Of a stretch of 64,000 nucleotides of DNA, positions 33,839 to 43,890 are shown piece by piece (the first letter of the stretch is position 1; each line of letters begins with the position of its first letter). Source of the DNA: Gammaproteobacteria bacterium. Lineage in GTDB: Bacteria; Pseudomonadota; Gammaproteobacteria; Eutrophobiales; Eutrophobiaceae. The position numbers were made by a program, and so were the translations under genes. The notes beneath the pieces were generated by a model. That model was not told where the DNA came from. It was given only the letters and a program-made list of their open reading frames with translations, and made no database searches. The stretch lies in the NCBI GenBank assembly GCA_965222155.1, contig CBDCTH010000012.1, positions 128,001-192,000 on the forward strand, given 5' to 3'.

Positions 33839-34258
33839 TTATTGATCACAATTCGAACCTGGTTGTTGACAACAAGCCCACCAGCGAGGATAATCATTAT
33901 ACTCATCACCCTGCTTCGAAATCAGCCTGTTGTTTGTTCTTTTTTGTCCGGGTTGGAGCGTAAATATATCGTCTGAGCTGCCGTCAATAACAACTCTTAC
34001 CCTCACCGCTTGAGGACAGTTATTCGTGGCTACATAACCCCCGGAACCAGGAGAGCAATCGGTCGTTTTGGGATGAGCGCAACGCTGGGCAAAGCCTATC
34101 CCTGGAAACCAAAGTTCATAACAAGACGGTGGTTCCCTGAATTGCTTGCGAATGCAATCAGCTGAACTCGTCCCTGCAAAAACCAGGGTAGCCAGGAAAG
34201 CCATGGAAAGAATAAAAGCTTTTTTGTACACACGTTCCGGTAAATAACGAGTCATCAT
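33839..34258 (-). CDS. secreted Cys-rich protein, paralog 1 (8 Cys)
   Basis: AAGGAGG RBS, signal peptide, clear similarity to 42748-43182. Confidence 0.85.
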   Translation of the reverse strand: MMTRYLPERVYKKAFILSMAFLATLVFAGTSSADCIRKQFREPPSCYELWFPGIGFAQRCAHPKTTDCSPGSGGYVATNNCPQAVRVRVVIDGSSDDIFTLQPGQKRTNNRLISKQGDEYNDYPRWWACCQQPGSNCDQ

Positions 34259-34747
34259 TTTCCCTCCTTTGTTACTTCATATACCTGTTACTTTATAGTA
34301 CTCATTATTAAGAGGATTTTCTTCAAAAGTCAAACTGTTTGTCAGGAACTGTTGACCCCAAATATCCCATAAGAGGACGGATTTGAAATCCGTCCCCGGA
34401 GAGTCACGCGCCTTACCAGGCAGACCTCGGGAACGTCGTTAATCCAGGGTAACTGGCTATTAATGAAAAGTCCTCTAAAAAAAACTACCGTTGTTTTCAC
34501 ATGAAAAATTTTCTATTGATTCGGTCGGCTGCTTTCCTGAACTTCATTACCGGGTTTGAAAGTATGATTTACGTGGACAAAACTTTGAAGGCAGTGAAAC
34601 TTAATTTATCCGAGGATCATACATCAAAGTCAGGAATGGAAAAATATCGGAGTCTTGATTGATCAGGCGTTTCCAGCCCGTCAGGGCACTAAACCGTCAA
34701 AGTCGGGAAAAAGGTAGGAAAAAAGGTATTGAACCAGGACAAAAAAT

Positions 34748-34778
34748 TTGACAGTGTCAATGCACCTTAATCTATAAT
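34748..34778 (+). promoter_or_regulatory. promoter-like TTGACA-N19-TATAAT with palindrome TTGACAGTGTCAA
   Basis: consensus hexamers 7 nt upstream of ATG 34786. Confidence 0.5.
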
Positions 34779-34785
34779 CAGTCTA

Positions 34786-35220
34786 ATGAGAATAAGCTAT
34801 CCCGCTCAAGCAATGGAGACAATCAGCATGAGCCCGACCTTGGCAAACGGGAAGGGGCTGTCTGTACCAGGTTCTTCTGACCGGTTTAACGGTGCCAGGC
34901 GGGTGATGCCGGCCTGCCGTATCCTGTCGCTGGTCCCGGTCTTCACGCTCGGCAGGCTGCCGGCGGAAGCCAATAATTCTACCCCCCCCCCCCCCCCCCC
35001 CAAATCAAGCTTTTTCAGCAGGTTAGAACACGCCGTCGGCATCATGCGCTGGTCTGTAACAGCGCATTTCAGCACCCATTCGCTGCTTTATAGAGGAGTC
35101 CACCAGTACGGTGGGGCGTACCTCAGCTTTCACATGACTTCCCCCTGTCAACCCAAAACATACAGGGTTTCTTTGTCCCTTGAGACCTGTAGTCTGATAA
35201 CAACGAGGAGAGCAGCATGA
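34786..35220 (+). CDS. putative leader ORF containing the C20 tract, coupled to the adhesin
   Basis: open through the poly-C; stop overlaps the adhesin start (ATGA 35217-35220). Confidence 0.4.
   Translation: MRISYPAQAMETISMSPTLANGKGLSVPGSSDRFNGARRVMPACRILSLVPVFTLGRLPAEANNSTPPPPPPKSSFFSRLEHAVGIMRWSVTAHFSTHSLLYRGVHQYGGAYLSFHMTSPCQPKTYRVSLSLETCSLITTRRAA
34982..35001. repeat. poly-C homopolymer, 20 nt
   Basis: direct read. Confidence 0.9.
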
Positions 35221-42330: not shown

Positions 42331-42530
42331 GGCCGCCCTTCGTTAATGGCACAGGTAATATCCTCAGTTGTAACAATATCGGGACGGATCTGTGAGCGAA
42401 GCATCCGGATATATTTGAGTCTGTCTTCCGGATTGATTTTTTCAGGCTGCAAAGTACGCTTGAGGCAAACGATCACTTCACTGTTAATACTTCTATGATG
42501 TTGTTCGGCAGTAAGTTTGAGTCGGTGACA
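42327..42530 (-). pseudogene. Arc/FitA-like antitoxin remnant
   Basis: HRLKLTAEQHHRSINSEVIVCL...INEGRP*, no intact start. Confidence 0.7.
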
Positions 42531-42747
42531 AAATATCCGTGTTATGTTCTAAGGGCCTGCTTCGCCGGCATGACAAAAATACGGCACGACAAAAACACTT
42601 GACAAACCCTCAGGAGAGGCTATACTGGTGAGCAGTGCCATTGTGCATCGTCGCTGGTGCCTGAGGGGGCGTCGCAGGAGAACAAATCTATCTCTTGACA
42701 GGAAATACTGTTGTCACTATGCAATATAACTACAGGAGACTATCATC

Positions 42748-43182
42748 ATGCACATAACTCAACTTCTCACCTCCCGCTCAGTTACATTGGCGAGCACGTT
42801 TATGGTGTTGTGTCTGCTTACCTCAGTGAGCGTTGCAGAGTGTTCCAGGTCCTCGTTCTGGGAACCACCCGCTTGTTATCAGCTTGATTTCGTTCAATAT
42901 CCAGGAGGCCCCCCTGTTGACTCCAGGGAATGTGCTCATCCGAGCGGAAAGAACTGCTATTACCCCAAGGAACTCCGTGCTACGAACAGCTGTAATTACG
43001 AGGTGAAGGTGAGAGTCGTCGTCAATAAAGGTGAAGACGAGATATTTACGCTCAAACCTGGGGGGACACGGTCTTCGAAGGCTTTTCAATCCGATTACCA
43101 TGATGGTTCAGAAAAAAGTTCAAAATCTGCTTACTACCGCTGGTGGGCTTGTTGTCGCGAGGGTAACGCGCAGTGTAAGTAG
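42748..43182 (+). CDS. secreted Cys-rich protein, paralog 2 (8 Cys)
   Basis: AGGAG RBS, signal peptide, EPPAC..CAHP..ATNSC..VRVV..IFTL.PG..RWWACC. Confidence 0.85.
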   Translation: MHITQLLTSRSVTLASTFMVLCLLTSVSVAECSRSSFWEPPACYQLDFVQYPGGPPVDSRECAHPSGKNCYYPKELRATNSCNYEVKVRVVVNKGEDEIFTLKPGGTRSSKAFQSDYHDGSEKSSKSAYYRWWACCREGNAQCK

Positions 43183-43458
43183 ACGGGCAGGTGATTTTGA
43201 TGCCGGCCTCTGTTTATCGCACTACGGCACTTTATTTATCTGGTAATAATCTCCTACAAGTTGTAGGAGATTATTACCACCCACGAAACAAACAAGACAA
43301 CCAACAAATCGTTCACGTCACGGAACAATTCAATGGCCCTATCCCTCCCCGGACGTACTCGAACGATATAATCAGGTAGCTCGCGGAACCAACTCAGCCC
43401 CCTACTGTTCCGGAGGTACGTTAACTGGTTCCGCCCCTGTTCCCTGGAAGCCTCTGGC

Positions 43459-43890
43459 CTATTCGCAAGTCTCGAATTGACCCGGATTGGAATTATTATC
43501 CAGGTAGTCGCGACAACACTGCACTCTCGTAAATTCCAGTCTTTTGTCGGCGATGTCGTCGGAGGAGACAACGTCTGTCAGCATTAGCGTCTCGGTATCG
43601 CCGCGATTAAGGAATATATGGATGCTCTGCTCCCGGGTCTGCACCGTGGCTTTCCGGCTCAAGACATCCGACGTGACGATAACACGTTTTGTACAGGCGC
43701 TCGTAGCCGAAATGCGGGTTTCCGATTCCTGCACCGTCACGCAAGCAGGCGGCCTTTTACGCTCGGCATCCGGGCAAAGCTCGTAGGGCGTTATCTTCAC
43801 CCCGGCCTGCGTACTGATGGAAGTCATCAAGACCACCAACACAAATAGCGCCAGAGTCCTGAAACGTATGCTGGTATAATCAATATTCAT
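43459..43890 (-). CDS. secreted Cys-rich protein, paralog 3 (6 Cys, divergent)
   Basis: AGGAGG RBS, signal peptide, C..PPAC..ATSAC..R.QCC..C. Confidence 0.78.
   Translation of the reverse strand: MNIDYTSIRFRTLALFVLVVLMTSISTQAGVKITPYELCPDAERKRPPACVTVQESETRISATSACTKRVIVTSDVLSRKATVQTREQSIHIFLNRGDTETLMLTDVVSSDDIADKRLEFTRVQCCRDYLDNNSNPGQFETCE

Follow-up and report, generated by a model that had tools for sequence, protein, structure and literature searches.

Two lineage-restricted families of exported, disulfide-rich mini-proteins in a gammaproteobacterium, one of them possibly a very distant relative of the tendamistat fold

The 64,000-nucleotide stretch of DNA analysed here (the window; positions 128001-192000 of contig CBDCTH010000012.1, C12 below, in a 4.55-Mb, 12-contig assembly of a Gammaproteobacteria bacterium of the Eutrophobiaceae) carries three open reading frames (ORFs) for small exported cysteine-rich proteins, which we name P1, P2 and P3 (Table 1). 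P1 and P2 represent one family, type A, and P3 represents another, type B. We propose that these are two lineage-restricted families and that type A is a very distant relative of the tendamistat fold, carrying a disulfide-stapled CAHP loop and acting as a binder or inhibitor scaffold, a reading to which we give about an even chance. Tendamistat-type inhibitors are a classic mini-protein scaffold for engineering. In the text available from two papers they are reported only from Streptomyces (PMC13240717, PMC10671682). If the proposed reading is true, the fold would extend further than is known, to a distant Gram-negative branch in which the disulfides are arranged differently and another loop stands in place of the reactive one; this would show where the scaffold tolerates change and hint at inhibitor-like proteins whose targets are not amylases. 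If the similarity is one of common fold only, the proteins would add another orphan family, confined to one lineage and of modest interest. Since no source names any type-A or type-B protein, leaving both as dark matter, a fold-level assignment is the first handle on them.

A sequence-only reading of the window had described the three ORFs as one family of tendamistat-like proteins; the ORFs are real, at the coordinates and strands given. All signal peptides were assigned by eye as Sec-type, from a basic and then hydrophobic N-terminus closing in an A-x-A-like motif. P1 and P2 have in common the motifs PPxCY, CAHP-x4-C, ATNxC, V[KR]VRVV, D[ED]IFTLxPG and RWWACC and a near-terminal Cys, all of which had been listed correctly together with the eight cysteines of each protein; the N-terminal cysteine spacing had been given as C-x6 and is actually C-x7-PP-x-C. 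Judged by their sequences (BLASTP E 3e-26, 47 of 144 columns identical), P1 and P2 are unambiguous paralogs. P3, again as first described, has PPAC, ATSAC, CC and a Cys close to the C terminus but no CAHP-x4-C pair.

Table 1. Features of the window (positions in window coordinates)
Feature	Position	Strand	Details
P1, type-A gene	33839..34258	-	139 aa; signal peptide ...GTSSA|DC; mature domain 105 aa, 8 Cys
P2, type-A gene	42748..43182	+	144 aa; signal peptide ...SVSVA|EC; mature domain 113 aa, 8 Cys
P3, type-B gene	43459..43890	-	143 aa; signal peptide ...ISTQA|G; mature domain with 6 Cys
P1 Shine-Dalgarno sequence, AGGAGG	7 nt before ATG
P1 promoter-like site, TTGACT-18-AATAAT	34333-34304	-
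P2 promoter-like site, TTGACA-16-TATACT	42599-42626	+	11/12 matches
Perfect 19+19-nt palindrome	43241-43279	.	between convergent P2 and P3; arms 100% complementary, 1 nt between
Lineage-specific 10.9-kb insertion	33413..44356	.	between aldehyde dehydrogenase and PaaK-like ligase genes; carries P1-P3
Aldehyde dehydrogenase gene, left flank	31814-33412	-	identified with Pfam
PaaK-like ligase gene, right flank	44357-45727	+	identified with Pfam
FG-GAP/RTX protein gene	35217-39581	+	1454 aa; 14 FG-GAP-like repeat stretches, 9 RTX nonapeptide stretches, serralysin-type C-terminal region
Two putative lipoprotein genes	39740-40093, 40113-40865	+	directly 3' of the RTX gene; LFGC and LAGC signals, by eye

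From AlphaFold2 models, types A and B are both predicted to form a six-stranded immunoglobulin (Ig)-like beta-sandwich of ~100-115 mature residues. The P2 model (mc1964638cd93, built on a 6-sequence alignment) has a mean predicted local distance difference test score (pLDDT) of 74.3, with ~80-95 over most of the mature domain, and strands at 44-49, 75-80, 86-93, 98-102, 107-111 and 129-136. The P3 model (mean pLDDT 70.5) also has six strands, with three residues between strands 1 and 2 and hence a tight first hairpin. Signal peptides are rendered as low-confidence helix. When the P2 model was compared by Foldseek with 350,542 PDB chains, tendamistat ranked first and second (1bvn_T, E 0.034; 1hoe, E 0.045), below formal significance, with template-modelling (TM) scores normalised to tendamistat of 0.60 and 0.57, respectively, and 20% identity. 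Similarly, the type-A profile searched against 177,635 distinct PDB sequences gave a single match at E <= 10, which was again tendamistat (E 0.81); profile positions 69-109 align with tendamistat 13-55, placing ATNxC on ADNGC (Cys27), VKVRVV on VTVKVV and PGQ on PGQ. The tendamistat family makes up three PDB sequence clusters. The Pfam family of these inhibitors, PF01356, scanned over all six frames of the genome, found its best score on a type-A gene (C12:1639232-1639372, E 0.038, 16.4 bits), type-A genes being 7.6e-5 of the six-frame residues. The copy concerned (C12:1639202-1639579) is the best PF01356 match because its last loop is short.

Several points weigh against tendamistat ancestry. 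No single one of these signals reaches significance, only one of the seven type-A members reaches PF01356 (E 0.012) with the other six failing at E <= 10, and unrelated families score E 0.04-0.2 in the same type-A family scan. The prior for tendamistat is also not fully independent, because the hypothesis arose from the same motifs. None of the five genomic type-A genes attains the curated PF01356 cut-off of 25 bits, the best being the gene just named, and type B gave no match to PF01356 either in a search with P3 or in the six-frame genome scan.

The available text of PMC10671682 lists seven inhibitors, from Streptomyces sources only, and describes tendamistat-family proteins as having ~75 residues, two sheets, a pair of disulfides whose positions are conserved and a Trp18-Arg19-Tyr20 (WRY) triad that plugs the amylase active site; mining of 295 Streptomyces genomes found tendamistat homologs in 38 species (PMC13240717, text likewise available in part). 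Tendamistat itself is HOE-467A; other Streptomyces proteinaceous alpha-amylase inhibitors include parvulustat, Haim and Paim (PF01356 A_amylase_inhib, SMART00783). Among the matches listed in the literature on tendamistat, none reports a proteobacterial homolog by its title.

Like tendamistat, types A and B are exported small disulfide-stabilised sandwiches whose predicted models have two sheets and six strands in compatible order, and between 67 of 71 and 69 of 74 residues are superposable on the models (P2 model 36..137 on tendamistat residues 4..74; type B 44..125 on 5..74). Type A keeps A-x-N-x-C, V-x-V-[KR]-V-V, PGQ and the equivalent of Cys27, namely the invariant cysteine of ATNxC; judged by the aligned ranges, its partner in a counterpart of the first tendamistat disulfide would be the PPxC cysteine, where we take the partner of Cys27 to be Cys11. 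In type B a span of 16 residues separates the two hairpin cysteines, which the aligned ranges place on residues 11 and 27. The second tendamistat disulfide (Cys45-C-terminal Cys) has no counterpart, Cys45 lying opposite P2 Ile99, a position occupied by I, V or L in all seven members. The WRY triad is absent as well: P2 Lys74, a gap and Glu75 stand opposite W18, R19 and Y20, and the type-B turn reads S-E-T-R. Unlike tendamistat, with its ~75 aa in the published text available, the mature type-A and type-B domains have 96-129 aa; the first hairpin of type A is ~25 residues longer, with an extra CAHP-x4-C loop and its putative disulfide; and both types carry extra cysteines (N-terminal, CC pair and C-terminal). 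Their host, too, unlike the Streptomyces sources named in that text, is a gammaproteobacterium without a GH13 amylase match. Because the WRY triad and the second disulfide are missing and the Pfam cut-off is not attained, types A and B are not members of PF01356; they are at most a distant variant of the tendamistat fold. The likeness to tendamistat claimed at the outset is partly upheld, for type A, insofar as fold, sequence-profile and Pfam signals agree, and is weakened in that all three are sub-threshold and two family hallmarks are gone.

Other structural matches were to the minimal Ig-like sandwich designs DIG14 and DIG8-CC (7skp, 7skn, 7sko) and to MG-type domains of complement C3/C4 and alpha-2-macroglobulin, with 9-16% identity and no common motif. 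The former are designed, the latter are parts of very large proteins, and the matches indicate only a minimal Ig-like sandwich, not a function. Matches to the periplasmic Ig-like curli inhibitors CsgC and CsgH were weak and within noise; their cysteine pattern differs, and no curli genes are nearby.

The type-A first hairpin holds ~25 residues (50-74, an excursion of 25-30 residues) that include the conserved CAHP-x4-C loop. Patterns of cysteine loss suggest a C62-C70 pair, both being missing in type B, and a C135-C143 pair, both being missing in the shortened copy at C12:1639202-1639579; by elimination the remaining pairs would be C43-C82, a tendamistat-like hairpin bond, and C32-C136. Conservation within type A (mean pairwise identity) is highest in strands b3 (0.77), b4 (0.65) and b6 (0.80) and in the CAHP loop (0.59), and lowest in loop 50-61 (0.25) and in 107-128 (0.16-0.17), both of which contain indels. 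Consistently, the closest type-A relatives differ at 0 of 8 positions in b3 vs 10-15 of 22 in 107-128.

The view that P1, P2 and P3 form one family did not hold. P3 fails all sequence and profile tests against P1 and P2. BLASTP similarity between P2 and P3 (E 0.024) covers the signal peptides only, and P1 and P3 show none (E 27). Whole-length hhalign alignment of type A with type B gave 1.9% probability with 19 signal-peptide columns aligned, the type-A hidden Markov model scored 4.1 bits on mature P3 (attained by 74 of 2000 shuffles), and permissive hhalign of the mature domains scored 12.7 (attained by 25 of 150 column-shuffled nulls), while recovering the P3 alignment first proposed, over PPAC, ATxxC, CC and the terminal C. 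What the two types have in common is the predicted fold, six-stranded sandwiches with overlapping lists of structural matches, and a cysteine framework, namely C-x7-PP-x-C right after the signal peptide, A-[TS]-x-x-C, a late CC and a near-terminal C. The 3,996,392 six-frame genome residues contain C-x7-PP-x-C at 23 places, six of them within type-A or type-B genes; by the remaining 17, the chance that a given 143-aa protein carries it is ~6e-4. Of the 31,749 ORFs with 60 aa or more, only four of type A and two of type B show the full framework (C-x7-PPxC...C...CC...C near the end), a pattern that is suggestive and not a test because it was defined after the proteins were seen. In addition, the P2 and P3 genes converge on each other across 277 bp. 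We regard types A and B as two families whose kinship is probable but not demonstrable, type B being probably, though unproven, a far-diverged sister of type A.

Taking three as the number of such genes was an undercount: the whole genome carries five type-A and two type-B genes (a third type-B match, E 1.4, was dismissed as noise). Two type-A copies encode an identical protein and have only a 609-bp segment in common (98.7% identity; C12:1900877-1901485 and C12:3255302-3255910), in otherwise unrelated surroundings. This segment comprises the gene with ~158 bp upstream and 16 bp downstream, and since similarity is confined to it, a single-gene cassette has been duplicated; one copy borders on a 206-bp multi-copy repeat, the other on DDE-transposase fragments. 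The type-A copy at C12:1639202-1639579 (125 aa) ends early, and two cysteines are gone from it, the leading one of the CC pair and the terminal one. At its 3' end an HY[YW]RWWTAC-coding stretch occurs twice in tandem, the second out of frame past the stop codon (within 40 bases downstream).

Relatives elsewhere are few. A word-indexed search of 5.77 billion proteins yielded, outside this genome, no more than two type-A relatives (75% and 69% identical) and one type-B relative. An exhaustive type-A profile search of 1.84 billion representative proteins gave seven matches at E <= 0.001, four of which are known close copies; P0009 (E 5e-18, 7 Cys) is a new, distant relative. The long repeat proteins P0010 (3033 aa) and P0011 (1051 aa), in which the matches (13 and 7, respectively) are limited to the VxVxV...FTL strand region, were rejected because their scores are sums of weak matches. 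True type-A relatives among these representatives thus number five, and public data overall add three type-A relatives and one type-B relative to the genomic set. Type A was absent from all related genomes searched (0 of 60 positive; 22 congeneric, 14 from the family's other genera and 24 from the same class). In 185,579 species genomes (types A and B) and JGI metagenomes (type A) patterns were matched and no relative was confirmed. For P1-P3 no family in Pfam, NCBIfam, PADLOC or PHROGs reached or approached its threshold, and the best ESM Atlas scores with the mature part of P2 (0.87-0.89) all fell on unnamed clusters. Enas (PF13157), matched by two of seven members at E 0.1-0.16, were rejected, being below the cut-off and with no Ena structure in the fold lists.

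On the reading that we prefer, type A would keep the tendamistat core motifs and the cysteine closing the first hairpin, while an excursion with the disulfide-stapled CAHP-x4-C loop would take the place of the tight Trp-Arg-Tyr turn and a new N-terminal Cys, the CC pair and the C-terminal Cys would substitute for the second tendamistat disulfide. Type B would retain a short hairpin of tendamistat length together with the same outer cysteine framework. Export followed by oxidative folding would yield a rigid sandwich presenting the CAHP loop, which, set between the hypervariable loops 50-61 and 107-128, may form a protein-binding surface. An invariable scaffold locked by disulfides, with fast-changing loops on either side of a conserved, stapled one, has the layout of a binding protein. 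No GH13 alpha-amylase (PF00128) was matched at E <= 0.001 in this genome, which is rated 100% complete, while the family was matched in 13 of 14 control genomes. The target, whatever it is, would thus be a foreign one, and with the WRY triad absent it need not be amylase. The proteins would thus be binder or enzyme-inhibitor scaffolds aimed at a foreign target, not at an amylase of their own and not by the WRY mechanism, and their genes would spread singly, as cassettes that bring along promoter-like sites and lie beside remnants of mobile elements. That both types are exported binder or inhibitor-like scaffolds we hold tentatively, at somewhat less than an even chance. Taken at its widest, the proposal makes types A and B the first tendamistat-superfamily proteins outside actinomycetes, with rewired disulfides (one kept, one replaced and up to two added), WRY exchanged for the CAHP loop in type A, and a seven-cassette natural binder library with diverging loops, presumably for several foreign enzymes; its chances appear to us a little below even.

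Generic orphan Ig-like sandwiches without tendamistat ancestry, with convergent motifs and a structural, adhesive or periplasmic housekeeping role (pilus-like or matrix subunit, chaperone-like or metal-handling), would be the best-surviving alternative, and we regard it as unlikely. Three different methods would all have picked the same tiny family by chance, no usher, chaperone, pilus or matrix genes adjoin any of the seven copies, and hypervariable loops on a fixed scaffold suit recognition better than housekeeping. Improbable, in our estimate, are secreted antagonistic peptides, bacteriocin-like or toxin-like, directed against competitors and spread by mobile elements. Small size, export, richness in cysteines, several copies, strain restriction, promoter-like sites of their own and adjacent transposase fragments, IS200/IS21 elements and toxin-antitoxin genes would all fit such peptides, but no immunity gene, dedicated ABC exporter or processing protease adjoins any copy, PADLOC, PHROGs and NCBIfam provide no match, and the fold matches are binders, inhibitors and structural domains, not pore-formers. 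That these are decaying or selfish cassettes without current cellular function is very improbable: rearrangement of the 3' end and loss of two cysteines mark the copy at C12:1639202, copies sit in mobile-element debris and no RNA run is listed that covers these genes, but six of the seven copies keep full-length frames, cysteines and core strands are strictly conserved among paralogs 33-61% identical, and relatives in other assemblies (69-75% identity) are also intact.

All seven type-A and type-B genes are solitary cassettes beside mobile-element debris; copies outside the window adjoin DDE-transposase fragments, IS200-like and IS21 elements and a HigB-like toxin gene. No conserved partner gene was found, the four other copies having unrelated neighbours with none common between copies. 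Each of the seven genes has a Shine-Dalgarno sequence and TTGACA-type boxes upstream, and promoter and terminator scans, which gave promoter-like sites for P1 and P2, yielded sites no more numerous than in shuffled sequence. The palindrome between P2 and P3 folds as RNA at -26.4 kcal/mol (z -6.6), a stability that none of 200 shuffles attained, and is probably a shared bidirectional terminator of the two genes.

P1-P3 lie in a stretch bounded by genes that are divergent and 60-225 bp apart in three of four congeners examined and ~2.8 kb apart in the fourth; none of the four has P1-P3 at this locus. Because the flanking genes are near-adjacent in congeners without P1-P3, the intervening DNA is assigned as a lineage-specific insertion (Table 1). 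GC content is 0.46-0.48 over 40-44 kb vs ~0.53-0.55 around it. The window stretch is present in four DNA-type runs from two studies, with no RNA run listed with it; contigs of these runs mainly break at, and cross-map from, paralogs, giving no usable population signal.

Within the insertion, segments of the FG-GAP/RTX gene recur at as many as 57 further genomic sites, and several other loci share 94-96% identity with its 3' end; given these many internal matches, it is a member of a large family of recombining RTX adhesin-like genes. A link of this gene to types A and B was rejected, since its genomic paralogs do not adjoin other type-A or type-B copies. The two putative lipoprotein ORFs 3' of it belong to no family in Pfam, NCBIfam, PADLOC or PHROGs. 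Further along, segments 41713-41817 and 42468-42524 match one contiguous place (C12:1148880-1149048) with 85-88% identity, so that the intervening 650 bp is an insertion relative to that copy; it contains overlapping short ORFs (41922-42122 and 42103-42330, - strand) that by eye resemble a split PIN-type toxin and have no library match. Short multi-copy repeats lie just upstream of P1 (34367-34412, 6 other copies) and at the right edge of the 10.9-kb insertion (44062-44190, 5 other copies), with 78-98% identity, and these may be elements resembling miniature inverted-repeat transposable elements.

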